From an uncultured Myxococcales bacterium (lineage in GTDB: Bacteria; Myxococcota; Kuafuiibacteriia; Kuafuiibacteriales; Kuafuiibacteriaceae): a stretch of DNA of 64,000 nt. Within the stretch, counting starts at the first letter, position 1; every line of letters begins with the position of its first letter. The stretch spans positions 1,889 to 65,888 of the forward strand of contig CAYXDO010000049.1 in assembly GCA_964463485.1 (NCBI GenBank). The letters run 5' to 3'. The notes under the pieces were generated by a model. That model saw only the letters and a program-made list of their open reading frames with translations, did no database searches and was not told where the DNA came from. A program made the position numbers and the translations under genes. Positions 1,517 to 60,910 of this stretch are shown piece by piece.

Positions 1517-3217
1517 ATGCGGCGGACCGCAGACTCGACCGTCCATGCAGGCGAGGCCCTAGATGGCCCTCTTCGCATTTTGCTGATCGCACCTGACGGG
1601 GTGTCCGCCCATCCCATTCAAGGGCGCTCGGAGCTCAAGCTCGGACGCTCCGAGGCCAACGAGCTCCGCGTGGATGACCCCGAGATCTCTCGGGAGCATT
1701 TGGTGCTTCGTTTTGGCACGAGCGTGGGCGTCGAGGATCTCGGGAGCGCAAACGGGACCCGCGTGCGCGGGAAACCGATTCGGGCTGGCGTGCTCGTCGA
1801 GCTCGGGCCCGGCGATCTGGTCGAGGCCGGCTCCACGATCGTCATCCTCCAACGCGCCTCGGCGGCGGTCCCCCTGCGGCGCAGGCTCCTTCCGCACTCC
1901 GCGTTCGAGCATCGCCTCGACGAAGCCTGTTTGCATCGCGGGCGCGACGCTGAATTCACGATCCTCCGGATCCACGTCGAGGCCGGTGGCGTCGAATCGG
2001 TGGAGCGAGCGCTCACCGAACCGATTGGCGCACGCGACCTCATCGCCAGCTACGCGCCAGGTGAGTACGAGTTGATCGCATTCGATTCGGGATCCGGTAA
2101 TCGCGTAGCAGAGGAGATCGAGCAGAGACTCGACGCGGCCAAGATCGAGCATCGAGTCGGCTTGGCCGCGTTTCCACGCGACGGAACGACGCCCGAGGAG
2201 CTGATCGAGAAGGCCTGCGCGGCCCTTCGCGGAGGTAGAAGCGTGGACTCGGAGCCGAGCGACATCATCGTAGAAGCTGAGTCCATGAAGAACCTGTACC
2301 GCCTGATCGATCGAGTCGCCCGCGGGAATATTTCGGTCCTCCTGCTCGGCCAAACCGGCGTCGGGAAGGAGGTTGTGGCCGAGCGACTGCACCTGGCGTC
2401 TCCTCGGAGGGAGCGACCCTTCTTGCGACTCAACTGCGCCGCGCTCTCGGACTCCTTGTTCGAGTCCGAGCTGTTCGGATACGAGAAGGGAGCATTCACC
2501 GGCGCGACGAGTCCGAAAAAGGGACTTCTCGAGAACGCCGACGGGGGAACCGTCTTCCTCGACGAGCTCGGTGAGATGCCAATTCACATTCAGGCCAAGC
2601 TCCTGAGAGTCATCGAGCAGAAGAAGGTAATGAGAGTGGGGGGCCTGGAGGCCCGCGACATCGACGTGCGCTTCGTGTCCGCGACGAACCGCAACTTGGA
2701 GGACGCAGCTTCCGAGGGTGCGTTCCGCTCGGATTTGTATTTCCGGCTGAATGGAGTCACTCTCGACATCCCGCCCTTGGCCGAGCGGCGGGAAGAAATC
2801 GAGGGCCTCGCTCGGTTCTTCGTCGCCAAGGCGTGCAAGGACATGGGGTTCACGAAGGCGCCCACCATCACGCCGCGCGCCTTGGTTCGCCTGCTCGAGT
2901 ATGCGTGGCCGGGGAATATCCGGGAGCTCCGCAACATGATGGAGCGCGCTGTGCTTCTGGCCTCGGACGATCGGATTGATCTCGAGCACCTACCCATCGA
3001 CAAGCTCTCCACTGCTTGGCGCCCTGCGGCGAAGCCTGACCCGCTCGAGCTCGAACCGTTGGAGGACGAACGAGCCAAGATTCAGGCCGCCATCGAACGC
3101 TGTGGCGGCAATCAGAGTCGGGCGGCCGAGCTCCTTGGGTTCTCGCGCCGTACTCTCTCCAAAAAGCTCGACAAACACCAGCTCCCACGACCGTTGAAGG
3201 ACGCCCGACGCCCGTGA
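1517..3217 (+). CDS. FHA-domain sigma-54-dependent transcriptional activator (FHA + AAA+ + Fis-type HTH)
   Basis: FHA motifs (GRS, SREH, DLGSANGT), Walker A GQTGVGKE, ELFGYEKGAFTGA, WPGNIREL and a C-terminal HTH. Start moved from 1268 to ATG 1517 because the upstream part is non-conserved. Confidence 0.92.
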   Translation: MRRTADSTVHAGEALDGPLRILLIAPDGVSAHPIQGRSELKLGRSEANELRVDDPEISREHLVLRFGTSVGVEDLGSANGTRVRGKPIRAGVLVELGPGDLVEAGSTIVILQRASAAVPLRRRLLPHSAFEHRLDEACLHRGRDAEFTILRIHVEAGGVESVERALTEPIGARDLIASYAPGEYELIAFDSGSGNRVAEEIEQRLDAAKIEHRVGLAAFPRDGTTPEELIEKACAALRGGRSVDSEPSDIIVEAESMKNLYRLIDRVARGNISVLLLGQTGVGKEVVAERLHLASPRRERPFLRLNCAALSDSLFESELFGYEKGAFTGATSPKKGLLENADGGTVFLDELGEMPIHIQAKLLRVIEQKKVMRVGGLEARDIDVRFVSATNRNLEDAASEGAFRSDLYFRLNGVTLDIPPLAERREEIEGLARFFVAKACKDMGFTKAPTITPRALVRLLEYAWPGNIRELRNMMERAVLLASDDRIDLEHLPIDKLSTAWRPAAKPDPLELEPLEDERAKIQAAIERCGGNQSRAAELLGFSRRTLSKKLDKHQLPRPLKDARRP

Positions 3218-4836
3218 GCGCTCCGGTCTTTCCTCGCTCGTTTGGGGCCTTCGTGCTTCTCGGACGACTTGGAGGCGGGGCGATGGGGAGCATCTTCGCG
3301 GCCCGACCTCGCGCCCACACTTCGGAGCTACCGCCGCGGCTCGCGATCAAGTGTCTCCGCTCCGAGCTCTCTGGAGATCCTGCGTTCGAGCGCCGCTTTC
3401 GCCATGAAGCCGCCCTGGCGATCGCGATCGATGCTCCCGGCATCGTGAGAATGTTCGAGCTCGGGAAACACGAAGGCGAGTTGTATCTCGCCATGGAGCT
3501 CGTCGAGGGATGGCCGTGCTCCGCGTTGCTCGCGGCGCTGCGCGAGAAGAAAATTAGCCTCCCCGTCGATGTCGCAGTCTCCGTATTCAGGGGCTTGCTC
3601 GAAGGACTCGTGTCGCTCCACGGGGCCTGCGATCCAGACACGCAGGCGCCGCTGTTCGCGGTGCATCGGGACCTTTCGCCGCGCAACTTCCTCATCGGTA
3701 CGCATGGCGAAGTCACCATCGTCGATCTCGGGCTCGGCCGTTCGGAGCTTCAGGACTGGCTCACTCGGACGGGACGGACGATGGGCTCTCCCGGGTACAT
3801 GGCACCCGAGCAGGTGCGTACGTCGCACGTGGACTCACGAGCGGACATTTACGCGGCGGGAGTGACTCTGTTCGAGCTTCTCACTCGCGAGCCGTACATC
3901 GCTCGGGGCAGCTACGCGGAAATGTTGGAGGCCCAGCGAAATCCAAAGCTCCGAGTGCCATCGTCGATTCGCAGCGACGTGCCCAAGGAGATCGACGAGC
4001 TCCTGGCGAGGACACTGGCGCCCAACCCAGATGATAGGTTCGCCTCCGCGCGCGAGGCGCTCGACGCGGCACCTTCAGGGAGCGCGAAGAGCGAGCTTGC
4101 GACCTTCTGCCTCTCGCTCCTTGGCCCGTCACCGGCCTTCGCTGATTTGCAATCCGACGTCGAACCCGAGCCAGAACCCACCCAAGTCTTTGCTCGAAGG
4201 AGTCTCACCGTCGAGACCGCGCCGACCTTGGTAGCCTCCGACCCTCGCGCCGCAACCAAGACGATGTCTGCGCCTGCTCAGGACCCCGCCACGCCGGTGG
4301 TCGACCCCCGGAGCTCTCCGGCTCGCGATCCTGCCTCCGGCGCCGCGAGCTCTCAGCCGCAGGGCGTGCCCGGGAAGAGCTGGGGATCCCTGGCCCTCGT
4401 GGCCGTGGGCAGCGGCGCGGTCGGCTCAGTTCTCACGGCCGTCGTGCTTCTCGCGGCTCGGCCGACGACCAACGCGATCGTGGCCGACCCTCTGGATGAG
4501 TCGCCCACGGTCACCGCCACGCGTCGAGACCCCGCGCCGGGGCGCGGCACAGAGCCTCCACCCCCCTCTATGCCGCGTACTCGGCCCGTTCGCCCTGAAG
4601 CGCCGCGTCGAACCGCGGCTGACGGGCCCTCTACTCCGGCGAACGCCTCAAAGACCGTGGCGGAGCTCGCGCGCGACCTCTCGCAGCGGGCCGAAACGCT
4701 AAAGCGCGAAAGACCAGCGCACGCCGCCGAAATCGACGAGCTCTTGGCGGACATCGCGATGTGGTCGGCGTCCAAGGAGGATCGAGTCCACGCCGAGCTT
4801 GCGCGTATCGGCGACCGATTGTCCCAGCTCGAGTGA
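3214..4836 (+). CDS. Hanks-type Ser/Thr protein kinase with TM segment and C-terminal helical domain
   Basis: LGGGAMG, HRDLSPRN, DLG, GSPGYMAPEQ. GTGA overlap with the upstream stop. Confidence 0.92.
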   Translation: MSAPVFPRSFGAFVLLGRLGGGAMGSIFAARPRAHTSELPPRLAIKCLRSELSGDPAFERRFRHEAALAIAIDAPGIVRMFELGKHEGELYLAMELVEGWPCSALLAALREKKISLPVDVAVSVFRGLLEGLVSLHGACDPDTQAPLFAVHRDLSPRNFLIGTHGEVTIVDLGLGRSELQDWLTRTGRTMGSPGYMAPEQVRTSHVDSRADIYAAGVTLFELLTREPYIARGSYAEMLEAQRNPKLRVPSSIRSDVPKEIDELLARTLAPNPDDRFASAREALDAAPSGSAKSELATFCLSLLGPSPAFADLQSDVEPEPEPTQVFARRSLTVETAPTLVASDPRAATKTMSAPAQDPATPVVDPRSSPARDPASGAASSQPQGVPGKSWGSLALVAVGSGAVGSVLTAVVLLAARPTTNAIVADPLDESPTVTATRRDPAPGRGTEPPPPSMPRTRPVRPEAPRRTAADGPSTPANASKTVAELARDLSQRAETLKRERPAHAAEIDELLADIAMWSASKEDRVHAELARIGDRLSQLE

Positions 4837-4952
4837 GTGCGACATGACGAGAGCGGGAGCGGCACGGACTTCGCCCTCCTTCGCGAACCTGGGTGAGTCT
4901 CGGACTCGTACTTTGCGTCAAGGCCGTACCAACTCAGCCGCAGCGTCTCGGG

Positions 4953-5738
4953 TCATTCCTCGCAGGTTGGACAGCCGATGCCCGGCCTGGCCAGACAGAA
5001 ACACGATCTCGCCGAGCTGAGAATCACCGCGCTCACGATTCCCGTGGTCACGACGACCGCACCCACGCCGATCCAAGGCCATAAGCTTGGGCGCTTTTCA
5101 AGCGCGACGCGGACTTCCTGCGCCGAACCTGCGATGAGTGTCGAGTACACTTCAGCCGACTCGTATCCGGCGGCTCGGGCGACGATCCGAGCTCGACCCG
5201 GCCGCACGAACCTCGACCCACCCACAAACGAGTGAACCTCGACACCGCTCACCTCGACTTCGGCGTCGGAGGGCGTCGTGACCACGACGAGCATCGCGAG
5301 CTTCGAGAAGCCAGCGTCATCGAGCACCCTCGAGAGTCCAGCTTCGATCTCCTCGTCCGCGCGATCTGATGCGAGTCGTCGCGTTACCGAGCCGAGCACC
5401 CGGCGAGCCTTCACGTCGAGAAGCTGCGCGCGAAACAACAGCGGTGACACTCTCCCCTGAAGCACGACGACGAGCCCGTATTTGACGCCGAACCGATCGA
5501 GTCGGGAAGCCAAGCAACCGACATCCGGTCCGCAGTCGAGGATACGAGCCTCGGCCGTCTCCTCGACGAACAGCGCCTCACTCGGAACCACGCTGAGTTG
5601 GGGACGAAATTCAACCGCCCTCGAAAGCGCCAAGAGCACGGCAGACTCCGTGATGGTCGCAGTGTCGACGACGCGCGACACGAGCGCCAGCCGTTCGGTC
5701 GGTGCGCAGGCGAGGAGCGCCAATAGAGTCAGAGTCAA
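4953..5738 (-). CDS. PEGA-domain protein, probable lipoprotein with C-terminal TM anchor
   Basis: LLALLAC lipobox-like start, PEGA-like VVVTTPSDAEVEV...ARAAGYE, hydrophobic C-terminus. Confidence 0.7.
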   Translation of the reverse strand: MTLTLLALLACAPTERLALVSRVVDTATITESAVLLALSRAVEFRPQLSVVPSEALFVEETAEARILDCGPDVGCLASRLDRFGVKYGLVVVLQGRVSPLLFRAQLLDVKARRVLGSVTRRLASDRADEEIEAGLSRVLDDAGFSKLAMLVVVTTPSDAEVEVSGVEVHSFVGGSRFVRPGRARIVARAAGYESAEVYSTLIAGSAQEVRVALEKRPSLWPWIGVGAVVVTTGIVSAVILSSARSCFCLARPGIGCPTCEE

Positions 5739-33365: not shown

Positions 33366-34646
33366 ATGAAACTCACTCGATCCATCCTGACCTCCGTCGC
33401 CTTCATGACCGCTACCCCGGCCCTCGCCTACGAGCCCTATGCGACGGGGCAACCGACGCGCACCTGGGGCATTCGCAGACAGGCCGACCCGGAGTTCGCT
33501 CGCGTGATCCAGCGAGTCACCCAGATGCCGTTCGATGGTGAGCTCTCCTCACGCGTCTCCAGGCTCGGGCTCAACGTCGTCAACGTCATGTGGGAAGACA
33601 CTGGCCGGTACCAAGGCTCGGCAGTCGGTCCGAACATCAGCGACCTCACCCTGCAAGTCCGCGAGCGCGTCCCTGAGGGCGTCCGTACTCACTTGCTGCC
33701 CGTGATTCGTCACCCGAACTTCAGCGACGAAAGCGCCGACGTCCCCGCCGACGCCATCTGGGTTCGCGTGGGGAACGAGCGCGATGGCGCCGCCCGTCGG
33801 GCCGTCCCGCTCACCGAGGTTCTGAAGAACCTCAAAGAGTATCTCTCGGACCCGGAGAGCCTCCGCGGGTCCGATGACTTCCTCGCGCGACGGGATACTC
33901 ACTTCCTCGTCAGCGCCCAACACGTCTTCGTCCCCTTGCCGGCCGCCGGAAAGGCCGAATTCAACCCCGTGCTCTTCAACTATCAGTCCGCCCCGGGCTC
34001 GCCCGCGGTCCTCACCCTCCTGGTGACCCGCGAAGGACTCTCCGCGCGCGTGATCGAAAACAAGCCCGGCGACCAGTCTTACCAAGGCTGGGGCCAGCAA
34101 CTCTTCTTCAATGACCACGGCCAAAAGACGACCTTCACCGCCGAACGAAAAAGCGCAGTAGCAGCCCGGGTCGCCAACGGCCAGGGCACCAAAGAAGACG
34201 AGGGCGCGCTCGAAGAAGGCTCTGACATGATGATGATCGTCCAAATCCCGCTCGTGCACGAAAACCGCGGCTACCTGGGCGGCGCGATGGACAGCCTCTC
34301 CGAAGGCGCTCCCGCGCCGGGCGCGGTAGCCCAAGCGCCGATGGCCAAATCCGCCAGCCGCTCCGAGCGCTCCGACGTGGAGCAAGCGGTGATCGGACAC
34401 GGCGACGCGATGGGTACGCACGAGGAATGCGGCGGGCTGAAGCTCGTGCGCGACAAACGGTTCCCGATCCGCGTGACCGTTCAGTTCTACAAGGCCACGA
34501 GCAATGGCATCGTCTCCGACACCGACCTCGCCGAAGTCCACAGCTCGATCGCAAAGGTCTACGCGAGCGCCGACTACGTCGGCTCCCTCGTGGTGCCGAA
34601 GTCGGAGCACAAACGCCCCACCCGCTGGACTCTGTTCGGTGACTGA
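33366..34646 (+). CDS. Conserved-looking exported hypothetical protein
   Basis: Sec signal peptide (TPALA), strong GC3 codon bias, 426 aa. Confidence 0.75.
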   Translation: MKLTRSILTSVAFMTATPALAYEPYATGQPTRTWGIRRQADPEFARVIQRVTQMPFDGELSSRVSRLGLNVVNVMWEDTGRYQGSAVGPNISDLTLQVRERVPEGVRTHLLPVIRHPNFSDESADVPADAIWVRVGNERDGAARRAVPLTEVLKNLKEYLSDPESLRGSDDFLARRDTHFLVSAQHVFVPLPAAGKAEFNPVLFNYQSAPGSPAVLTLLVTREGLSARVIENKPGDQSYQGWGQQLFFNDHGQKTTFTAERKSAVAARVANGQGTKEDEGALEEGSDMMMIVQIPLVHENRGYLGGAMDSLSEGAPAPGAVAQAPMAKSASRSERSDVEQAVIGHGDAMGTHEECGGLKLVRDKRFPIRVTVQFYKATSNGIVSDTDLAEVHSSIAKVYASADYVGSLVVPKSEHKRPTRWTLFGD

Positions 34647-34759
34647 AAACTACTCTCCGAATCGCGCTCTCGACGTCCTGAGACACTGATGTGATGGTGG
34701 GTGGGTCCCAGTGACTTAGGGGCCGTCAAGGAACTACCGGCTTTGATCGACGAGCTCGG

Positions 34760-35001
34760 GGTGACCGGACTCATCGGATTCGCAGCTTCGCGACCACGAC
34801 CGAATTACCGGATCAACTTGGTCTCCGATTGGCCAAGGCCGCACTCGCCATCGGAAAGGACGCCGTCCGCCTCAGATGAGGGTGACCAGACTCTTCGGAT
34901 TCGCAGCTTCGCGACCACGACCGAATTACCGGATCAACTTGGTCTCCGATTGGCCAAGGCCGCACTCGCCATCGGAAAGGACGCCGTCCGCCTCAGATGA
35001 G
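34760..35001. repeat. 121-bp direct tandem repeat, 2 copies (34760-34880, 34881-35001)
   Basis: The units differ at 2 positions by manual comparison. Confidence 0.9.
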
Positions 35002-35301
35002 TATACTTTCTCGCGCCGAACGCGCCCGAGCTCAGCTTCGATGACTCACTCCGAAGCTCCGGCAATCTCCGCCTCCAGCGCTCGCAGCGAAGCCAAGACG
35101 TCGCGCACGTCGGACGCATGGATTCCGGGCCCAACCCTCGTGCGTACATCGAGAAATCGTCGCTCGAACCTGGCCAGCTCGGGCGGCTCGACTTTGGAGC
35201 TCGACGCGCGGATCCGTGCGAAAACACCAACCAAGCGGTCCTCCAAAAAACGTTCGCCTTCGAACGAACCCAGATCCAACTCTGCCAAGCCACCGCGGGC
35301 C
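34994..35301 (-). pseudogene. Orphan copy C of the 3' end plus flank of the kinase at 49132-51792
   Basis: Aligns to 49080-49387 with ~25 mismatches. The reading frame is intact (LAELDLGSFEGERF...ASE*). Confidence 0.9.
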
Positions 35302-35313
35302 CGGGCAGTGCCC

Positions 35314-35455
35314 TTCGAACAGTGCCGGGCACCGCTCGAAATGGGCGGCACCGCTCGAAATGGGCGGCACACCGCTCGAAATGGGCGAAATGGGCAAGGC
35401 AGCTTCGTATTCGGTAGGAGCGCTGTTCGAAATGGGTCGGCACCGTTTGAAAAGG
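35314..35455. repeat. Cluster of short repeats with core GCACYGYTYGAAA (one inverted copy, then about five direct copies)
   Basis: ttcgaacagtgcc at 35314, ggcaccgctcgaaatgggc x3 (35328-35386), variants at 35420 and 35439. Confidence 0.85.
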
Positions 35456-35473
35456 CGCACTGCTGTATGCCGA

Positions 35474-35818
35474 CTACTTAGGAAGCCAGGCACACGATCC
35501 CTTGCCGCACCCACACCGGAGCGCGAACCGCTCGGCCCGCTGGCACGGGCAGACCGTTGTGAGGATGTGCAGGCAATAGGGAAAGTAAGATATGCAGGCT
35601 CCTGGCTCACAGCCGTAGTCCCCACAGTCCGAGTCCTTCGTACATTCGCCGCCCCCCCCTCCGCAGAACGGCTCAGTGTCGGCCTCCTCGCCGCACTCCC
35701 GACAGACCGGATCTGAATCGCAGGCACTGACGGGGGTGCTCGGCTCGGCGGGTTCTCGACCGCAGCCCCACAAGCCAACTCCGAGCAAAAGGAGCGGGAC
35801 AATCGGTCGGCGCTTCAT
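35474..35818 (-). CDS. Small Cys-rich lipoprotein, eight-cysteine-cluster-like domain
   Basis: Lipobox LWGC; FCG...C..D.DC...GC....C...C.C....C.W. ATGA overlap with the upstream FN3 ORF. Confidence 0.75.
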   Translation of the reverse strand: MKRRPIVPLLLLGVGLWGCGREPAEPSTPVSACDSDPVCRECGEEADTEPFCGGGGGECTKDSDCGDYGCEPGACISYFPYCLHILTTVCPCQRAERFALRCGCGKGSCAWLPK

Positions 35819-36433
35819 GGCGGAAACACCGGTCGCCCGAAGTCAGAACAAGTCACGTGTCCGTCGAAATCGAGGCAGCTTCTTATTCGGTAGGAGCCCG
35901 CGAAACTGGCCTGCGGGTCCAAGAACTCCACTGAGGGAAACGGACCCAAATGTCCCCGCACCAAGGCGACGGTTTCATAGTACGAGTCTTCGGGGCTCGG
36001 ACCGACCCGAATTTCCCGCTCGATCTCGTAGGCGTTCGCGAGTGGGCAGCCATCGGTCCACGAGACGCGCATTTGACTACCGTCGAGAGGCAAGACCGCT
36101 CCAGCCCAAGTCACGGAAGGTTGGGTCAATGCTGTCGACCCGACGCACCCAGCCTCCGCCCGGCAACGGGCCGCTGACCGTCAGCCGGAAGTTGACCGTC
36201 GGGATTGGCCCCGACCGCGACCAGGAGATGGGGAGAATGTCAAATCCAGGCGCGCCGACCAGGAAATTGGTGGGAACTTCTGGGACAATACTCACCGTGT
36301 CGAAGGAAACGGGTTCGGTCCACCCAGAGCAGACGACGCCGTCGACGGCGTCGCGACAGGCCCTGACGGACACGTCATAGGTCACACCCGGATGAAGCCC
36401 TTCCACCGCAGCGCGAGTTTGCGGTCCGATCAC
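35815..36433 (-). pseudogene. 5'-truncated, frameshifted fibronectin type III repeat protein
   Basis: FN3 motifs (GLHPGVTYDVSVRAC; VSWTD...YEIER) are split over two frames (36077-36433 and 35815-36129). No signal peptide. Confidence 0.75.
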
Positions 36434-36639
36434 ACGGTTGGCTAGTTAATTAGATCCGTTCCCGGTCCGGGTCCGGGTCCCGAAATTACTGGGCTCTTGC
36501 CCACTCGCCTGGGATCGTGGTGGCCGGTGACGGGCTCGCCGGTCATTCGAGGCGAGTACGCGATCTCCCGAATTTCGCACTCCGGGCGAACGGACTTGAG
36601 TGCCGCGACGCCGCCCGACACCATAGGGGGGGGGAGACC

Positions 36640-36924
36640 CTACTCGCCGCGAGCAACCCGGCGGAAGTTCTCGTCGACCCACTGGCACTTGTGCTCGACA
36701 CAGGCACAAACGAGGTCATAGGGCTCCGGATTCTCGCACGCTATTTTTATGTGCGTCGCGTGAGTTTGGATTTCCTTCGTGGCGCATAGCCTCGCCCAGC
36801 CCGATGCGTTGCACTCCGTGTCGCTCGTGCAATAGTCGAACTCACTGAAACCGCAGAACTCATCGGAGCTGCATCCTAGGACGGCGGCCATCGCCGCCGT
36901 AATTAGCGCTCGCGGCCCCATCAT
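36640..36924 (-). CDS. Small Cys-rich lipoprotein, eight-cysteine-cluster-like domain (paralog of 35474-35818)
   Basis: Lipobox VLGC; FCGFSEFDYCTSDTEC...CACVEHKCQW. ATGA overlap at 36921-36924. Confidence 0.75.
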   Translation of the reverse strand: MMGPRALITAAMAAVLGCSSDEFCGFSEFDYCTSDTECNASGWARLCATKEIQTHATHIKIACENPEPYDLVCACVEHKCQWVDENFRRVARGE

Positions 36925-37490
36925 TCGACTTGGCACGCCGCTGTACAGCCATCGCCGTCGTCCGTGTTGCGATCGTCGCACTGCTCTCCGGCGTCGACTC
37001 GGTGGTTGCCGCAGACGCGAGCCAAGGCGAGATTACTCCATTCCGAGCACGCCGAATCGACACATGAACGAACAAAATACCGCCCCTGAAGGAGGACGTC
37101 GGGATCAACAATCGAGAGAGTCGGCAAGGGACCTTGGTGACCTTGGACGAAATGGTTCACCCAATCCATTGGAATGGGACCCGGTGCAGAGCCCGGCCAA
37201 TCAGATACGATTTGGTAGAGGTTTGCTTCCACGTTGCAGTCGGCCCAACTCAGTTGAACATCATCGCCCATCACCGAAGTGACTCGAAGGCCGGCTGGAG
37301 CGCAAGGCACGAATCCATCGGTCTGTTGAGGGAGGAACGCGTTGGCGCAGCCATCGAGGGAGCACGCACGCACATTGATGACGTACGTCCGGGTCTTTCT
37401 GAGGTTGTCAAAGGTGAAGCTGCGGGCGGACGCAGGTAGCGGTCGCTGCGGAAACCGATGATCACGTGTCCAGGCTACCACTTCATACTG
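36921..37490 (-). pseudogene. 5'-truncated FN3 repeat protein ending in a Myxococcus cysteine-rich repeat
   Basis: FDNLRKTRTYVINVRAC, a full FN3 domain, then CGNHRVDAGEQCDDRNTDDGDGCTAACQVE. It begins mid-domain at a hexamer repeat tract. Confidence 0.78.
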
Positions 37491-37614
37491 TCGGGGTCGA
37501 AGTCGGAGTCGGAGTCGGAGTCGCCGCCCTCGGCCGACCAAGTCAGTCGCACGTCGTCGCCTTGCGACTCCCCGAGCTCATCGTCCGAGACACGGTGACA
37601 CTCGATGCCTTCGC

Positions 37615-38160
37615 CCGCAGCCTGCTGCCGTTCGGTGACTCGGTCTGGGCAGTGCTACCTTGGGAAGGCCGGCTGGTTCGCTTGGTGCCCAGATGAGTAT
37701 ACTTTCACGCGCCAAGCGCGCCCGAGCTCAGCTTCGATGACTCACTCCGAAGCTGCGGCAATTTCCGCCTCTAGCGCTCGCAGCGAAGCCAAGGCGTCGC
37801 GCACGTCCGACGCATCGATTCCGGGCCCAACCCTCGTGCGTACGTCGAGAAATCGTCGCTCGAACCTGGCCAGCTCGGACGGCTCGACTTTGGCGCTCGA
37901 CGCGCGGATCCGAGCGAGAACACCCTTCAGACGCTCCTCCAAAAATCGTTCGCCTTCGAATGAACCCAGATCCAGCTCTGCCAAGGCACGGCGGGCCGCC
38001 ACTTCGTCTCGAGCGGCCACCGCGTCTCGCAGCCTTCGTCCGACTTCGGCCGTCGAAGGCACCAACAACAGGTCCGAAAGCTCGAGCCCACGGGAACGTA
38101 GCTCCGCGCTGACGGTCGTTCGGACGGCGTCGGCGGCCGGGGCCTTCGCAGGCCGCGGTT
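37615..38160 (-). pseudogene. Orphan copy B of the 3' end plus flank of the kinase at 49132-51792
   Basis: 37615-38100 is identical to 49005-49490 (486 bp, checked line by line); 38101-38160 is similar but diverged. Confidence 0.95.
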
Positions 38161-38163
38161 CGC

Positions 38164-38229
38164 GAAGCTTTTCGAACAGTGCCAGTGCGGGAAGCTTTTC
38201 GAACGGTGCCGAAGCTTTTCGAACAGTGC
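38164..38229. repeat. Three copies of gaagcttttcgaacRgtgc(c)
   Basis: Copies at 38164, 38191 and 38211. They share the 13-mer TTCGAACAGTGCC with 35314. Confidence 0.9.
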
Positions 38230-38426
38230 GACAAGCGCACCTATGATATGAAGGTCGCCTGACCATCAACCACCACCGGATCGCAGCTTCACGGCAACGG
38301 GCCGACGAGACTCCTTCGCGGCCCCTCGCACCGAAGGTTCCGTCGTTCGACCCAGCGAGCGCCGAGCCGTTGCTGACCAACTGGTGCTCATCACGCCTAT
38401 CTCGGCTGGCGTGCATCCTGCGACAA

Positions 38427-39893
38427 TCAAGAGCCTCGCAGAATCCGGCAACCCTCTGATTCCCGCTCGGACTCAACACAACCCATCGTCACCGATCGGA
38501 AATCACCGATGCCCACCAGAGCCCGTTCGAGCGGCGTCTCCCGCCCAAACACGACAACGGAAATGCGTTCGTACGTGCGTAGCGCCGTCACGATACGGTC
38601 GATCGCGGGAAGAGCCACGGTATCGTTGCCTCCCGAAAAGACGACTCGTAACCGGGTCGATCCCTCGATCGAGACGGCCACATACCCATCAGGTGCCGGC
38701 TGAAGCGCCAGCGTGAGGCGATCGGGATAGATTGAGATCCGGGGCGAATCAAGCATCGACCCCGGCAATCTTGCAGGCGATCCCTCCGCGACCGCAAGGC
38801 GAACCGCATCCTCATTTGCCAGGCGGCTCCAATCGAACGAAGCCACGATCACTGATGTCGTTCCGTCCGGCGCGCGAATCGACCACCGTGCAGGCGCACA
38901 GTTTGGAGGCTCGGAAATGACGTCAACAGCCCCTGGAACGAAGTTCCATGCACTGTCGTGCCTCGCCGCGATGGCCAACACCGTTTCATCGCACCGACCG
39001 ATCTCTGGAACTGCGAAGGTCGTCGTTGCGCTCGCGGGTGTCGACACTTCGAAAGTGAGGGCGTCCTGTCGATACTCGGGCCCGCAGTCGCCGGTACAGC
39101 TAGCCCGGACCATGATAGCGAGGTCTTCGGAAAAGCCCGATGTTGCGCCACGGAGAACTGGCAAGATCGCGCCAGGCCAAATGGCAGTACCGGGCCCTGA
39201 GCAGAACCGACCCGGCCGGGATGCATTGGCCAAAGTGAAAAAGAGCGAGGCACGCACGTTGCCTCCGATCGCCCAGGCTACGTAGTCACCAGAGACAGTC
39301 CGATGGTCGACGAGGCAGCCGAGCATTCCCGCTGGAACGTCGACACTGCCACAGTGGGGCTCGCCAGGTTGGTCGGAGATTCCGGGGGCTAAAAGAGATC
39401 GAGGTACCTCGACCGTCCTAGTCATCCCCGACTCCGGGTCGTAAACCTGGGGTTTCAGCGTATCGCAAAACAGTGAACTGATCCCAAGGTCGGACCGGTA
39501 CCTCGGGAGAGAGAGTCCACCGATCGCAAGGCGGATAGCGTCGGGGCTCGTGGCGGTCGTCGTGGAGAGGCGTCCTCGTACTCCGCTGGGGCGAGCACCT
39601 TCCTCCCGGCGGAGGGCGACACGGATTGGTTCGGATCCGCCAACGAGGAGCACGAGCATCGACTCATATTCCGCGCGCTCGAGCAGAACAAAGTTGGCAG
39701 GTTTGGACTGGTAGAAATGAACGATCCCACCTTGCGCGCTCACCTTGCCTTCTGCTGCCGTTGCCTGAACGTCGCCAAGTAACTTCTGGTTCTCGTCGTA
39801 GATAAGGGCTCCGAAAGAATACGCCGGAAACGGATCCGGGCCTTCGTCACCAGCGCATGCGGCGAAAACGGCGAGGCCAATGCACGCCCTCAT
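38427..39893 (-). CDS. Hypothetical lipoprotein (488 aa), translationally coupled to the giant upstream gene
   Basis: Lipobox FAAC. ATG at 39893 overlaps the TGA of the upstream ORF (ATGA). Confidence 0.72.
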   Translation of the reverse strand: MRACIGLAVFAACAGDEGPDPFPAYSFGALIYDENQKLLGDVQATAAEGKVSAQGGIVHFYQSKPANFVLLERAEYESMLVLLVGGSEPIRVALRREEGARPSGVRGRLSTTTATSPDAIRLAIGGLSLPRYRSDLGISSLFCDTLKPQVYDPESGMTRTVEVPRSLLAPGISDQPGEPHCGSVDVPAGMLGCLVDHRTVSGDYVAWAIGGNVRASLFFTLANASRPGRFCSGPGTAIWPGAILPVLRGATSGFSEDLAIMVRASCTGDCGPEYRQDALTFEVSTPASATTTFAVPEIGRCDETVLAIAARHDSAWNFVPGAVDVISEPPNCAPARWSIRAPDGTTSVIVASFDWSRLANEDAVRLAVAEGSPARLPGSMLDSPRISIYPDRLTLALQPAPDGYVAVSIEGSTRLRVVFSGGNDTVALPAIDRIVTALRTYERISVVVFGRETPLERALVGIGDFRSVTMGCVESERESEGCRILRGS

Positions 39894-49131: not shown

Positions 49132-51792
49132 TCACTCCGAAGCTGCGGCAATTTCCGCCTCTAGCGCTCGCAGCGAAGCCAAGGCGTCGCGCACGTCCGA
49201 CGCATCGATTCCGGGCCCAACCCTCGTGCGTACGTCGAGAAATCGTCGCTCGAACCTGGCCAGCTCGGACGGCTCGACTTTGGCGCTCGACGCGCGGATC
49301 CGAGCGAGAACACCCTTCAGACGCTCCTCCAAAAATCGTTCGCCTTCGAATGAACCCAGATCCAGCTCTGCCAAGGCACGGCGGGCCGCCACTTCGTCTC
49401 GAGCGGCCACCGCGTCTCGCAGCCTTCGTCCGACTTCGGCCGTCGAAGGCACCAACAACAGGTCCGAAAGCTCGAGCCCACGGGAACGTAATTCCGCGCT
49501 GACGGTCGTTCGGACGGCATCTGCGGCCAGGGCCTTCGCCGGCCGCCGTTCCGCCGACGAACCGCGGCGGAGCCCCACCGGAAGCGACTTCGACTTCACC
49601 CTCGCCCATGGCTTGGTGCTCTCCTGGGCCACTGTCGCCGTCGGTGAAAAAACGGCCGAAGCCTCTCGATCCACCTCTGACGCGACCTCGAGTCGCGGAG
49701 CTGCGCTCGCCTCCACACTGGGCGCGGGCTCAGCAGCCAACTCGACCGGCGCTCTCTGCCCCAACAACTTCGCGCCCAAGAGTACGATCGCGATCGACGC
49801 CAAGCACACCGTAAGAGCCGCGATCAACCGAGCGAGCCGGCCCCTCGGAGCCGCGATGACACGAGTCGCGGCTCCTACCCCAGCCAAGAGCTCGACCGAC
49901 GCGAGCGCCTCCGAGGCAGTCGGCCGGTCCCTGACCTCTCGGCACAACATCGCCGTGATGAGCGGCCCCAATGGACCCGCACGTTCGCTGACCACCGGCG
50001 CTCCCGACAGCCTCCGCTCAGCCACCTGCCGCGCCGGCCCCGTGAATGGCCCGGCTCCGTCCAGCATGTAGATCGCCAACAGCCCAACCGAATAGATATC
50101 CGTTGGTGCACCAACGATCTCTGGATTTTGAAGCTGTTCTGGGGACAAGAACCGAAGCGTGCCGACCACGTCGCCGGCGCGCGTGAGGCGGGTAGACTCG
50201 CTCTCCGTCGGCAGAGCGACCCCGAAGTCGAGCACCTTCACCCGACCGTCGTCGAGCTTCATCACGTTGGCCGGCGATAGGTCGCGATGCACGTAGCCCG
50301 CCGCATGAACCTCCTCCAGGGTGGCCAGCACCGAACGAATGATCGGGGCGACCTCGTCCAGCGGCAACGGCCCACGATCTTCGACGATCCCGCGCACGGT
50401 CTTGCCGCGCAAGAGCTCCATCACCATGTAGAGGCGACCGTCGGGTGTGGATCCGCGGTCGATGACCTTCACCAAGCCCTGGTGACTCAACTTCGTCAGC
50501 GCGTCGATCTCGCGGCGAAAACGCTCGTGGGCCCTTCGATGGGTTGCCGGCGTGTGGAGGATCTTGAGCGCGTAGGTCTCGCCGGAGTCCTCACGCACGG
50601 CTTTGAAAACCTCCCCAAAGCCGCCACGGCCGATCGACGCCTGAATTCGATACTCACCGAAGCGAATCGCCGTCTCGTCCTCCTCCGGCGCCGTTGTTTC
50701 GCTCTCTTCGGGCTTGGCATCCCGTGGCTGCGCTCGCTGAGGATCGGGCGCCGTCACGGAGTCAGCCCGTGCCTTCGTGGGCTCGCTCGATCCGGCGGAC
50801 TCCGACGACAGCAGCGACGGCACCGCGACTGCATCGGGCACGTCCGCATTCTCTTCAGGGACCGCAAACAACGCGCTCAAGGGGCTCCGCGCCTTCGGTC
50901 GACCGCCTTGACGCAGACCCGCCATGACCTCGACGAGTGTGTCGCGAGGATCGAGATCGTCACGACTCGCGATCGCTGCGAGCAGCGCACGCCGAAGCTC
51001 GAGGGCGCTCTTCGTGCGGCCCTCGCGCTGAGCGACGAGGGCGCGGGAGATGGGTGTAATCAGGTCGGGCGGGAGACCCGACGGCAGCTCGACCGGCTGT
51101 CCCGCGATCACCTTGCGCCGCAAGGACTCGGAGGCCATCGGATTCTCACCCGAGAGGACCCGAACCAGCACGAGCCCGAGCGCAAAAATATCCGCGCGCG
51201 GATCCGCGACCTCCCCGCGATGCTGCTCGGGCGCCATCCACTCCAGCTTCCCCTTCGAAATGCCCACCTTCGTTCGCGCTTGGCGAGCGTGCGCGAGCGC
51301 GATCCCGAAGTCCGCGAGCTTCACGTCCCCGGCAAAGGAAACCAACACGTTCTCCGGGCTCACGTCCCGATGCACGACACCCAATGAACGTCCGTCACCG
51401 TCTTTCGCGGAGTGGGCATGCTCCAGCGCACGCGCGAGCTCGGAGACTATGAACAACGCCGCTGTCTCGGGGAGCAACTCGCGCCGCTCGGCGCGCTGAT
51501 CTTCGAGCGTCGAAAGATCGACGCCGTCGATCAACTCGAGCGCCTGGAAGGGCGCCCCGTCTAGCTCGCCAAAGTCGAGCAGCGAGACGATGTTCCCGTG
51601 TGAGAGCTGGGAAAGAATTCGGGCCTCATCCAAGAACCCAGCCACGAGCTCGGGATCGTCGAGACTCTCTCGGAGAAGCCGCTTGATGGCTACTCGCCGT
51701 GAGAACCCAAACGCCCCGTGTGATGTCGCCTCGTAGAGGTCCGCCATCCCCCCCCGCTGGATCAGCCGGACCAACTCGTAGCGGGATGCCAC
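49132..51792 (-). CDS. Ser/Thr protein kinase with two tandem kinase domains, TM helix and C-terminal helical domain
   Basis: First domain HRDVSPEN/DFG/WMAPEQ; second domain IGRGGFG/HRDLSPAN/DFG/FLSPEQ. Confidence 0.92.
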   Translation of the reverse strand: MASRYELVRLIQRGGMADLYEATSHGAFGFSRRVAIKRLLRESLDDPELVAGFLDEARILSQLSHGNIVSLLDFGELDGAPFQALELIDGVDLSTLEDQRAERRELLPETAALFIVSELARALEHAHSAKDGDGRSLGVVHRDVSPENVLVSFAGDVKLADFGIALAHARQARTKVGISKGKLEWMAPEQHRGEVADPRADIFALGLVLVRVLSGENPMASESLRRKVIAGQPVELPSGLPPDLITPISRALVAQREGRTKSALELRRALLAAIASRDDLDPRDTLVEVMAGLRQGGRPKARSPLSALFAVPEENADVPDAVAVPSLLSSESAGSSEPTKARADSVTAPDPQRAQPRDAKPEESETTAPEEDETAIRFGEYRIQASIGRGGFGEVFKAVREDSGETYALKILHTPATHRRAHERFRREIDALTKLSHQGLVKVIDRGSTPDGRLYMVMELLRGKTVRGIVEDRGPLPLDEVAPIIRSVLATLEEVHAAGYVHRDLSPANVMKLDDGRVKVLDFGVALPTESESTRLTRAGDVVGTLRFLSPEQLQNPEIVGAPTDIYSVGLLAIYMLDGAGPFTGPARQVAERRLSGAPVVSERAGPLGPLITAMLCREVRDRPTASEALASVELLAGVGAATRVIAAPRGRLARLIAALTVCLASIAIVLLGAKLLGQRAPVELAAEPAPSVEASAAPRLEVASEVDREASAVFSPTATVAQESTKPWARVKSKSLPVGLRRGSSAERRPAKALAADAVRTTVSAELRSRGLELSDLLLVPSTAEVGRRLRDAVAARDEVAARRALAELDLGSFEGERFLEERLKGVLARIRASSAKVEPSELARFERRFLDVRTRVGPGIDASDVRDALASLRALEAEIAAASE

Positions 51793-51875
51793 AAAGAGAG
51801 GCTATACACATTTATAGGACGAGAGATCGGCAACTCGTCCTGGCGCAGAAGGCCTCCGTCTCGTACCGTCTCGCG

Positions 51876-53228
51876 GTGTCCAGAACCGTAGCTCACCACG
51901 TGCCGACCGTGCCGGTCCGACGCCTTCGTGTCGATGTCCTCGATGGCCCCGACGCGGGAAAAAGCCACATCGCCTCCGCGGACGTCATCACGCTCGGCAC
52001 CGCGCCAGGCAACGATCTCATCCTCACCGACCCCACCGTGTCCGGCTATCACCTGGAGCTCCGGTGCGAGGACAACAAGATCACACTCGTCGACCACGGC
52101 TCCACGAACGGCACGGCGCTCGGAGGCGTGCGCCTCGAACGCGCGTCGATCCCCCCAGGAACCCTGCTCAAACTCGGCCGGACCGAGATCCGAGTCGACG
52201 ACGAAGGGACCGTCGACTGCGAAATCCTCGGCGGCGATCACCTGGGCGCCGTGCGCGGCCGCTCTTCGGTCATGCGCAGACTCCTCGCAACCCTGGAGCG
52301 CGCCGCGCGAAGTGATACTTCCGTCCTCCTCCTCGGAGAGACCGGGACTGGCAAAGAAGTCCTCGCCCGCGCCCTCCACGAAGCCAGCCCCCGCCGGGAC
52401 CACCCATTCGAAACCGTCGACTGCGGGGCCTTGATCCCCACACTCACCGCAAGTGAGCTGTTCGGACACGAACGCGGTGCCTTCACCGGCGCCGAACAAC
52501 AACACATCGGAGCCTTCGAACGCGCCCAAGGCGGAACGGTCTTCCTCGATGAGATCGGAGAGCTCCCGCCCACGATCCAAGTAATGCTCCTCGGCGTCCT
52601 CGAACGACGAGTCATGAAACGGCTCGGGGGCAAGACGCCCATTCCCGTCGACGTCCGTGTCGTCGCGGCGACGAACCGGGATCTTCGTGAGGAGGTCAAC
52701 AAAGGGACCTTCCGACAAGACTTGTACTACCGAATCGCGGTACTCATGCTAAGAGTACCGCCGCTTCGCGAACGGCTCGACGACATCCCCATACTCATCG
52801 AGCATTTCCTGCGGGAAGACGGCTACTCGGGACCCATCGAATCGGTGATCGGCCGCTCCGTGCTCTCCACTCTCTCGAGTCATCGCTGGCCCGGCAACGT
52901 CCGCGAGCTGCGAAACTTCGTGGAGGTCGCGCGCGCCATGGGTGAGGCGCCGCCTCTACATGAGTCTGTGGACGCGGAGTCCGCCCCGCACCAAGAGCCC
53001 GCCCCGGAGGGGCTCGCGGTCGACATATCGATCCGAGGGCTCGAGGCGCAGCGCCCGCTCTACAAGGAGCTTCGAGAGATTGTAGTTCGGAAATTCGAGG
53101 AGATTTTCCTCGACCACCTCATGGAACGTACGAGAGGCAACGTCGCCAAGGCGGCTCGAGAGGCCGAGATGGATCGAAATTATCTGACTCAGCTCTTGCA
53201 CCGGCACGGCAAGAAATCGAAGCCCTGA
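51876..53228 (+). CDS. FHA-domain sigma-54-dependent transcriptional activator
   Basis: FHA DHGSTNGT, GETGTGKE, ELFGHERGAFTGA, WPGNVREL, HTH. Start moved to GTG 51876 to avoid overlapping the divergent kinase. Confidence 0.92.
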   Translation: MSRTVAHHVPTVPVRRLRVDVLDGPDAGKSHIASADVITLGTAPGNDLILTDPTVSGYHLELRCEDNKITLVDHGSTNGTALGGVRLERASIPPGTLLKLGRTEIRVDDEGTVDCEILGGDHLGAVRGRSSVMRRLLATLERAARSDTSVLLLGETGTGKEVLARALHEASPRRDHPFETVDCGALIPTLTASELFGHERGAFTGAEQQHIGAFERAQGGTVFLDEIGELPPTIQVMLLGVLERRVMKRLGGKTPIPVDVRVVAATNRDLREEVNKGTFRQDLYYRIAVLMLRVPPLRERLDDIPILIEHFLREDGYSGPIESVIGRSVLSTLSSHRWPGNVRELRNFVEVARAMGEAPPLHESVDAESAPHQEPAPEGLAVDISIRGLEAQRPLYKELREIVVRKFEEIFLDHLMERTRGNVAKAAREAEMDRNYLTQLLHRHGKKSKP

Positions 53229-59616: not shown

Positions 59617-60101
59617 AACGCGCACGCGCCGGAGGTCCAAAAGAACACCGTATCGTCTGGCTCGGTCCGCAACCGCATGTCGAGATACTCGGACAATTCG
59701 GTCGCCCCGATCAACTCCCCGAATTCACCGAGCCCGCGACTCGGGCTCAACCCATCGTCGATCCGATCTTGCAGCGCGCCGAGGCCCGAGATCAGCAACT
59801 CAGGGGACAAAGAGGCCCCTCCACGAAGCTGAGCGATCCGCAGCTTGGCCGCTCCGGCCACCATGTGCCAGATCCCGTACCGGTCGGACTCGACATCTTC
59901 GAGCGCTCGGTCGAGCGCCCACTCGGCGAGCGCGCCGAGCTCAGTCGGGGAACTCTGACTCGAAATCCAGTCGAAGGCGAGGTCGAGCGACTCATGCGCG
60001 CCGAGAGTCTTGAAGCGCTCGAGAAGCGTCGAGAGCTCATGCACGGAGTCCTCCGAGGGGGAACGGTTTGGATCCTGGGGCGCTGAGACCGTTAGCGGCA
60101 C
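59598..60101 (-). CDS. Hypothetical helical protein
   Basis: The ORF fills an otherwise empty gap; no motif was recognised. Confidence 0.45.
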   Translation of the reverse strand: MPLTVSAPQDPNRSPSEDSVHELSTLLERFKTLGAHESLDLAFDWISSQSSPTELGALAEWALDRALEDVESDRYGIWHMVAGAAKLRIAQLRGGASLSPELLISGLGALQDRIDDGLSPSRGLGEFGELIGATELSEYLDMRLRTEPDDTVFFWTSGACAFQSRRT

Positions 60102-60225
60102 GCGCGCGTGGTGACCGCAGCCGAAATCCCAGGTACCTGAGCGACACCCTCGAGGTGCGACGGACATCAATCCCACCACCCCAGAGGTGATTGCCAAGGC
60201 AGGGTCGACATCGTATCTTCATCGT

Positions 60226-60510
60226 ATGAGCAAGCAGGCGATCTCGGTCACGCTCGACCAAAACAACCTCCTTTGGATCAAAGGGCAGATGAAAGTCCGT
60301 GGCACACGAAGCGTCAGCGAGACCATCGACGACATCCTATCGGCAGCCCGCCGCTCGCCAGGTCAAGTGACCTCCGTCGTCGGAACGGTTCGAATCCCGG
60401 ATGATGATCCGGAGCTTCTCTCGGCGAACGCGGAGTTGCGGCAGTGGTTCGCGAGCTCGCTGTCTCGAGGCGAACGCCGGGCCGCCACACGGAAGCAAAC
60501 TCGTGCCTGA
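60226..60510 (+). CDS. Putative antitoxin with RHH-like N-terminus
   Basis: KQAISVTLDQ...SVSETIDDIL; overlaps the PIN gene by 8 nt. Confidence 0.7.
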   Translation: MSKQAISVTLDQNNLLWIKGQMKVRGTRSVSETIDDILSAARRSPGQVTSVVGTVRIPDDDPELLSANAELRQWFASSLSRGERRAATRKQTRA

Positions 60511-60910
60511 ACCCAAAGCCCTCGTCACCGACACTCATCCCCTCATCTTTCATGCCGCCGGCGGGCGAAGATTAGGAGCGAAGGCAGCCAGACACTTCGC
60601 GGCATGTGAGAGAGGTGCGGCTCTGCTCTACGTCCCGGCCGTCGTCGTTTGGGAGTGCGCGCTGCTTGCGAGGAGGCGGCGAGTCGAGTTTGGGCGCTCC
60701 GTCGAATCCTTCTTCACCGACCTATTCGGCAATCCCGCGTTCCAACCCCTTGACCTGACCCTCGGACAACTCTACCTGGCCGACGAGGCACGACCGAACG
60801 AAGACCCATTCGACGCGCTGATCTGCGCGGCGGCGCGAGCGCTCGACCTTCCCCTCATCACGGCCGATGCGGATATTACTGATTCTGGCCTTGTCCGTGT
60901 GGTGTGGTAG
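60503..60910 (+). CDS. vapC: PIN-domain VapC-like toxin
   Basis: VTDTH, WE, DPFDALI, LITAD acidic PIN motifs. Confidence 0.88.
   Translation: MPEPKALVTDTHPLIFHAAGGRRLGAKAARHFAACERGAALLYVPAVVVWECALLARRRRVEFGRSVESFFTDLFGNPAFQPLDLTLGQLYLADEARPNEDPFDALICAAARALDLPLITADADITDSGLVRVVW

Follow-up and report, generated by a model that had tools for sequence, protein, structure and literature searches.

Short repeat arrays beside two truncated kinase gene copies in a Myxococcales genome look like products of local duplication and decay

Some integrative elements, with integrase arm-type sites, insert at a gene's 3´ end and restore the gene, as seen for tRNA-gene islands and for e14 and phage 21 in icd, and rhs/cdi polymorphic toxin genes have orphan modules downstream. 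The ends of IS21-family insertion sequences (IS) carry at least two direct repeats, each composed of two GC-rich boxes separated by ~10 AT-rich bp, with a terminal CA (PMC10122671); these end repeats, L1/L2 and R1/R2, are the direct repeats to which IstA binds (PMC10122671). Here we compare with these systems a locus in a 64,000-nt stretch of DNA (the window) from an uncultured Myxococcales bacterium of the Kuafuiibacteriaceae (assembly GCA_964463485.1, contig CAYXDO010000049.1, positions 1,889 to 65,888), in which two arrays of a ~20-nt repeat abut two truncated 3´ copies of a Ser/Thr kinase gene. We tentatively favor a history in which a single ancestral junction of array and tail underwent duplication, gained units by slippage and became scrambled in a decaying pseudogene tract. 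The arrays look like the outcome of local duplication and decay, possibly seeded by dead IS ends, rather than an active new recombination system.

Two repeat arrays and three kinase tails

The kinase gene, its partial copies (B and C) and the arrays beside these copies are as follows.

49132-51792, minus strand: intact dual Ser/Thr kinase gene (A), 886 aa, with two Pkinase domains, a transmembrane segment and a C-terminal tail
49002-51792, minus strand: kinase A with its 3´ flank; copies B and C derive from segment 49002-49551
37612-38161, minus strand: copy B, the last 140 codons and 130 nt of 3´ flank, matching 49002-49551 at 98.5%
34994-35301, minus strand: copy C, the last 84 codons and flank, matching 49080-49387 at 92% and copy B also at 92%
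38164-38233, minus strand: array B, three ~20-nt units (GCACYGTTCGAAA + AGCTTCG) with cores at 38217-38229, 38197-38209 and 38170-38182; a partial GCACTG at 38183-38188, and TGTC at 38230-38233 directly outside the outermost unit
35313-35462, mixed strands: array C, a patchwork of a minus-strand unit (35313-35325), three plus-strand units GCACCGCTCGAAATGGGCG (35329, 35348 and 35369), a 9-nt duplication (35377-35395), a 25-mer (35397-35421), two further plus-strand units (35420 and 35440) and a partial GCACTG (35457-35462)

The original prediction held that the same 13-mer stands beside both orphan-kinase junctions, and it does: the window has two exact copies of TTCGAACAGTGCC, one at 35314, 12 nt from the homology boundary of C, and one at 38171, 9 nt from that of B. 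Allowing up to two mismatches, nine sites are found in the window against 1.62 expected, a count reached in 0 of 100 shuffles, and eight of the nine fall in the two clusters. For the core GCACYGYTYGAAA at up to one mismatch, all nine sites in the window (0.75 expected) lie within 35313-35452 and 38170-38229, and the ~35 other intergenic regions have zero core copies. The further copies that had been described, three direct ones at B and an inverted pair plus about four more at C, were all present. The motif had also been described as absent from the equivalent positions of the intact kinase; at up to two mismatches, the whole gene (49132-51792) has no copy, and an origin of the motif in the kinase gene was rejected. 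A ~20-nt repeat unit with the consensus GCACYGTTCGAAAWGSKTCG has the 13-mer as its core. Any junction at the edge of an array with this period necessarily lies within about 20 nt of a copy, and the detail that the motif begins 10-12 nt outside both junctions therefore weighs little alone.

Each unit consists of GCACYGTTCGAAA and a spacer, AGCTTCG in array B and TGGG(T)CG in array C. The three minus-strand copies of array B (38217, 38197 and 38170) are direct, with spacings of 20 and 27, and in array C the minus-strand copy at 35313 forms an inverted pair with the plus-strand copy at 35329. Tandem Repeats Finder reported 20 nt x 2 at 94% for B and 19 nt x 3.1 at 95% for C. In a matrix of all units, likeness is 18-21/23 within arrays versus 11-18/23 between them. 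Each B unit has one best C partner (38217 with 35420, 17/23; 38197 with 35440, 18/23; 38170 with 35313, 17/23), and the remaining B-C pairs score 11-16/23. The junction-proximal unit is oriented toward the kinase tail in both arrays, and the block of the first two units and GCACTG is inverted between them (35420-35462 on the plus strand, 38229-38183 on the minus strand). The 35-nt arms of the facing units (38170-38229, minus; 35420-35452, plus) are 86% complementary. The 25-mer of array C is identical at 24/25 positions to coding sequence at 35873-35897 ('SYRIRSC', in the second of two decayed gene modules between the arrays), and CGAAA(T/C) flanks both copies. Position 35873-35897 would be the donor, since it is in frame and conserved in module 1. 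With this patch in it, array C is a mosaic of short patches.

A hairpin that promotes template switching had been proposed for the motif; no hairpin in the DNA folds of the arrays beats shuffled sequences (z-scores -0.7 to -1.6), and a hairpin or cruciform was rejected. A structured RNA was also rejected, with no Rfam match at E<=1 across 33-40 kb, as was a CRISPR array, the units being contiguous with no spacers.

The tail shared by the three copies aligns to the C-termini of other kinases (P0010, E=1e-7; P0023, E=2e-4), and an exhaustive HMMER search found it in P0011 and P0125-P0129 as well. In all of these homologues the tail ends a kinase of 580-900 aa and is never a small free-standing open reading frame (ORF), which makes A the source from which fragments B and C derive. 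By these alignments the tail is native to its kinase family. The closest homologues are either at most 47% identical over a substantial part or paralogues from the same metagenome-assembled genome (MAG); P0011 is 60% identical over 34%. The kinase itself is intact while the partial 3´ copies persist as direct repeats (37612-38161 and 34994-35301).

Of the eight mismatches between A and B, seven are concentrated in the 61 nt nearest the junction; the next 486 nt are identical, a tract with a diverged edge that indicates an old duplicate re-homogenised by gene conversion. Substitutions in copy C are spread over all codon positions, as expected of a pseudogene; the 25 differences between A and C, six of them at A positions of copy A, have a mixed spectrum. 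A diversity-generating retroelement with a template repeat and variable repeat was rejected: the mismatches are not adenine-specific and no reverse transcriptase was found. An extra 30 nt of the copy C region (34962-34991) match 48979-49008 across a 71-nt indel in a self-BLAST. Short unit matches are found in the intact gene at both boundaries, GGTTCG at B and GGCCGCTCGAGACGAAG at C, compatible with microhomology-guided joining; the nucleotides directly touching the kinase fragments are not conserved.

Both junctions are present in independent assemblies. From array C into tail C, the window is matched at 100% identity by Logan contig L001 (SRR12113402), and contig JACQYO010000024.1 of the NCBI MAG GCA_016208175.1 is 99.95-100% identical across both junctions, which are therefore not assembly chimeras. 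All single-nucleotide polymorphisms (SNPs) between the window and this MAG in 34.9-43.8 kb and 48.6-64 kb lie inside the repeated kinase tails, at 49072, 49162, 49187 and 49243 in the tail A region and at 37961 and 37975 in tail B, where both carry the tail-C base. These SNPs are either real, reflecting ongoing conversion among the three copies, or due to short-read mixing in the MAG.

Proposed descent from one duplicated junction

In the history that we favor, the ancestral array would already have been joined to a 5´-truncated kinase 3´ end, and both arrays would descend from it. The array-plus-tail segment would have been duplicated in the gap that separates the kinase from the convergent gene (33366-34646), where only broken genes and repeats are now present. 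Slippage would have multiplied units inside each array, a two-unit block would have been inverted, and a short patch would have been copied in from the neighbouring pseudogene. A deletion, possibly guided by the GTTCG / CGAAG matches, would have shortened copy C, and gene conversion would have re-homogenised copy B with the intact gene. The motif would then stand at both junctions through common descent together with the fragile, recombination-prone nature of array DNA, and would have no dedicated trans-acting partner today. The repeat structure, the matching of units, the patch, the conversion tract and the lack of mobile-element genes and of other copies are observed; we infer both the order of these events and the lack of function.

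The greater likeness of units within arrays than between them is what slippage predicts. Variable breakpoints had been taken to argue against a classic single-att integrase; the unit-by-unit correspondence of B and C suggests one ancestral junction that was later duplicated, and variable breakpoints therefore need no independent insertion events. Variable-number tandem repeat minisatellites at segmental-duplication junctions share with this locus head-to-tail units of 19-27 nt, within-array likeness, a conversion tract in the duplicates and a position in non-coding, decaying DNA beside other tandem duplications. Unlike such minisatellites, the arrays have no copy-number polymorphism between two assemblies and lie in opposite orientations. 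The partial 3´ copies stacked behind an intact gene and able to recombine with it also recall rhs/cdi orphan modules, but here the copies are near-identical, lack a cognate immunity-like partner and derive from a kinase gene.

Several observations weigh against this history. Clusters of ~20-nt direct repeats 2.8 kb apart (three versus two units) resemble the ends of DDE transposons, and TGTC precedes the outermost B unit at the distance seen in IS21-family ends. An extra inversion must be assumed for the arrays to face each other. In the inverted block, mismatches are somewhat rarer in the core (2/26) than in the spacers (3/8), by our own count and not significantly. Window, MAG and Logan contig carry identical arrays and differ in the 121-nt repeat alone, a weak test of copy-number variation since the strains are near-identical. 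Finally, the statement that there is no other copy rests on about 105 kb of genome.

Comparison with IS21-family ends and other elements

The same-genome sequence examined came to about 105 kb (88 kb non-redundant), a part of the whole genome, and the source genome is not among the genome, metagenome and viral collections that we scanned by pattern. Two additional contigs from the same MAG, L055 and L058 (~40 kb, adding about 24 kb non-redundant), have no core at up to one mismatch, and the paralogous kinase-activator locus in this set has no third motif site. The original prediction had named a common intergenic repetitive extragenic palindromic (REP) repeat, distributed without relation to junctions, as the alternative; within the sequence examined, the motif is instead confined to the two arrays. 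A dispersed REP or bacterial interspersed mosaic element was rejected, given two clusters only, no copy elsewhere in ~105 kb and no significant hairpin. Enrichment at other truncation junctions, also proposed, was not visible in the ~105 kb.

Matches to a tandem-pair pattern numbered 14 loci among 185,579 species genomes, 37 among the metagenomes and 0 in viral contigs, with one cluster at each locus and the loci scattered over unrelated phyla. Cross-phylum matches (L006, L010, L038 and others) were dismissed as tandem repeats in unrelated contexts, and by a rough, uncomputed estimate 14 and 37 are about what chance would give. The Myxococcales match, L010 (Myxococcales bacterium Baikal-deep-G136, 3174-5140), is one of three minisatellites (18 nt x5-7, TTTCGAACAGTGCAGAAT; 23 nt x7; 24 nt x5) in ~1 kb of non-coding DNA less than 2 kb downstream of a tRNA-Gly, the 3´ end of which is tandemly duplicated with a 96-nt unit.

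Five metagenome matches (L016, L032, L048 and L051, and the solo end L049) share the boundary TGTCG, GCACCGCTCGAAAACGAGGCCATA, GCGCCGCTCGAAAATGAGGCC. In the first four, istA is next to the TGTCG end, and tblastn gave 78% identity to annotated IS21-family transposases. L061 carries a similar IS21-family end, and L062 is an intact element with left end TGTCGACGACGTTCGAATATGAGGCC... and right end (reverse complement) TGTCGGCGACGTTCGAATTTGGGGCC.... In the retrieved ends, the TGTCG tip (TGTCG, GCGACGTTCGAA) leads into a pair of direct repeats that share a CG(Y)T(Y)GAA core and stand 24-25 nt apart. The five matches are contigs from soil metagenomes; in L016, L032, L048 and L051, TGTCG and two repeats at a spacing of 24 nt form the left end of an IS21-family element. 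Of these, L032 and L051 have an istA that is frameshifted and interrupted near a tyrosine-recombinase C-terminus, and L049 has the 80-nt end only.

Array B opens with TGTC, GCACTGTTCGAA, and read inward from 38233 it gives TGTC, GCACTGTTCGAAAAGCTTCG, GCACCGTTCGAA..., with TGTC before the unit at 38217-38229 versus TGTCG in L051, L061 and L062. Like IS21 ends, the clusters contain several direct repeats with a CGYTYGAA core and the layout of GC-rich, ~10-nt AT-rich and GC-rich boxes described for IS21 repeats (PMC10122671). The ends of Tn402/Tn5053, Tn7 and Mu follow the same principle of several repeats per end. The arrays are also mutually inverted and about one IS21 length apart. We therefore weighed whether the arrays are the relic transposase-binding ends of an IS21, Tn402-Tn5053, Tn7 or Mu-type DDE element, either decayed or non-autonomous and once mobilised in trans, and judge this, the main alternative, rather unlikely. 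The ends would be array B (tip at 38233, three units) and 35420-35454 (two units) of a ~2.8-kb unit with an interior that is now host DNA, and the junctions would have arisen since IS ends are sites of rearrangement.

Other features do not fit such ends. Searches of every frame of 38220-39930, of the ORFs within the unit and of the ~105 kb from this genome found no istA, istB or rve remnant, and a six-frame scan of 38220-39930 gave no transposase remnant. When IstA and IstB of L062 were compared by tblastn with the window, L055, L058, L059 and L060, only the AAA+ similarity to a sigma-54 activator was detected. A target-site duplication is absent, as no repeat of at least 4 nt is common to the two flanks (...GAACAG / AGCGCA..., or ...GGTAGGA / AGCGCA...). 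The tip at the other cluster does not appear to be TG; AGGA stands at 35416-35419, inside the 25-mer patch, the TGCC ahead of 35329 complements the reversed unit beside it, and the TG upstream of 35329 and 35313 is merely the GGCA of the partner unit. Units are spaced 19-21 nt apart, not 24-26 nt as in IS21, and there are extra units (six at C, one of them reversed). A host gene fragment lies inside the supposed end, the kinase tails abutting the inner side of the ends and not the tips. In addition, the IS21 match was retrieved with a pattern built from the motif, which introduces selection bias, and the pattern scans gave no related end in Myxococcota except one minisatellite. If the arrays did originate in this way, they would be IS21-like ends that outlasted their transposase around host cargo in a poorly sampled lineage of Myxococcota.

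The claim that the motif is an element-end signature thus held in part: the motif marks both junctions and the array layout is like that of transposon ends, but there is neither a mobile-element gene nor a target duplication. Its trans-acting partner, proposed to be a recombinase, transposase or nickase, did not materialise, as no such gene or remnant is present in or near the islands. Searches of all window ORFs with Pfam, PHROGs and NCBIfam found no integrase, transposase, Rep or reverse transcriptase. We give very little credence to the variant in which a cassette that lacks a transposase (about 35323/35416-38233) has the arrays as its working ends and is moved in trans by an IS21- or Tn402-like transposase encoded elsewhere in the genome, with secreted-protein genes and a kinase 3´ end as cargo and with cassettes stacked behind the kinase, its frame restored by homology. 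Such a cassette would combine transposon ends with a homology arm.

The arrangement also resembles that of integrative elements directed to a gene's 3´ end, in that two displaced partial 3´ copies, in direct orientation, follow an intact gene and enclose blocks of accessory genes, with iterated 13-mers within 70-140 nt of the shared segment. On this model, the arrays would be arm-type sites of a tyrosine integrase, and islands serially integrated at the kinase 3´ end would have regenerated the gene and left displaced tails beside the P arm; varying extents of element-borne homology, judged from established lambda/e14-type integration, would explain the breakpoints. We regard this as highly improbable. 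Neither block nor the window encodes an integrase or excisionase, the motif is on one side only, and the blocks have no phage or integrative and conjugative element genes and no compositional break. The 'islands' consist of a giant gene for a surface protein and, in block 2, of pseudogene fragments that start exactly at the junction. A tRNA target was rejected as well, the window being without tRNA genes.

Functional iterons with no relation to recombination, to which a chromosomally encoded regulator would bind (the FHA/sigma-54 activator beside the kinase, for instance, or another DNA-binding protein), are likewise improbable. The period of about two helical turns, the conserved core and the enhancer-binding protein gene at 51.7-53.2 kb are in line with iterons. 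Against them, the arrays lie behind pseudogenes and not ahead of intact genes, the paralogous kinase-activator locus lacks a third site, and neither array has a sigma-54 or sigma-70-like promoter near it. Matches to the sigma-54 promoter and upstream activating sequence (TGGCAC-N5-TTGC) are at chance level with none near the arrays, and terminator-like sites are also at chance level. Replication or partition iterons were rejected (no rep or par gene, GC 0.61-0.64, no plasmid match), as was plasmid or iteron similarity, which gave no significant match. Restriction-driven joints at TTCGAA were rejected too, the hexamer not being avoided (42 observed, 36 expected). A literature search with 12-mers returned only primers. 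A composite six-frame 'array peptide' had no match in the protein collection, an uninformative result, since this query also missed P0001 of the window.

The surrounding tract

On the minus strand, the gene order is kinase A, a giant gene, 1.66 kb without an identifiable gene, array B, tail B, two decayed modules, array C, tail C, a 121-nt x2 tandem repeat and the convergent gene (33366-34646). The features between the kinase and this gene are listed below.

39890-48784, minus strand: teneurin-like surface protein gene between the intact kinase and copy B, 2964 aa, with PKD, Big_9, TTR and NHL domains and a C-terminal HExxH
38234-39889, strand not assigned: 1.66-kb interval from array B to the giant gene, with a 497-aa ORF of weak codon bias and no family match
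35474-37611, minus strand: two paralogous decayed modules; in each, a small heavy-Cys lipoprotein gene comes after an Fn3-like ORF that is frameshifted or truncated
36640-36981 and 35474-35818, minus strand: the heavy-Cys lipoprotein genes; the Fn3-like ORF of module 1 has a myxo_disulf_rpt repeat
34759-35001, strand not assigned: 121-nt tandem repeat, two copies 98% identical, directly 3´ of copy C

The 121-nt repeat opens with 30 nt that match a stretch downstream of the intact kinase (48979-49008). At 34759-35001 the MAG sequence is shorter by 206 nt, either a real length variant or a short-read collapse. Homology of the flank from 38234 onward to the 121-nt repeat was rejected as not above shuffles. 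Codon bias is weak across 34.6-39.9 kb, GC is 0.61-0.64 across the region with no compositional break, and dnaG, rpoD and a Mur ligase gene are chromosomal core neighbours. The 121-nt duplication of assembly-dependent length, the broken Fn3 ORFs and the weak codon bias show a general instability of the tract.

Other sites in the window were recorded separately. The 12-mer CTAGTTAATTAG at 36442-36453, which has stops in all six frames and is AT-rich in a genome of 63% GC, sits exactly at the 5´ cut-off of the module 2 Fn3 domain (36077-36433, minus strand) and is probably another rearrangement or insertion scar. Homopolymers of C8 in the second lipoprotein ORF (encoding GGGGG) and of G9 just past the stop of the first (about 35651-35660 and 36623-36633) are possible slippage-prone tracts. 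Within the giant gene, window and MAG differ by about 11% over a ~1.2-kb segment (44300-45500) with flanks >99.9% identical; 112 of the 147 differences are at third codon positions and an indel gives 2964 versus 2829 aa. The segment looks like an allelic or recombinant part of a giant surface protein that is under purifying selection.

The dual Ser/Thr kinase gene (49132-51792, minus strand) is paired with an FHA-domain sigma-54 activator gene (51699-53228, plus strand). The pair recurs as a paralogue (41% identity) at L058 4121-8357 in the same MAG and in an unrelated metagenome, and it appears to be a conserved signalling module; synteny with the paralogous kinase locus was rejected, the convergent downstream genes being unrelated. 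At 60100-60910, a small ORF precedes a PIN-domain protein (Pfam PIN, E=1e-9), likely a VapBC-type toxin-antitoxin pair.

If the arrays do descend from one duplicated junction, the locus would be an ordinary case of a non-essential gap in a myxobacterial genome gathering gene fragments, tandem repeats and conversion tracts. It would also serve as a warning that a motif common to two junctions can reflect descent, not a recombination signal.

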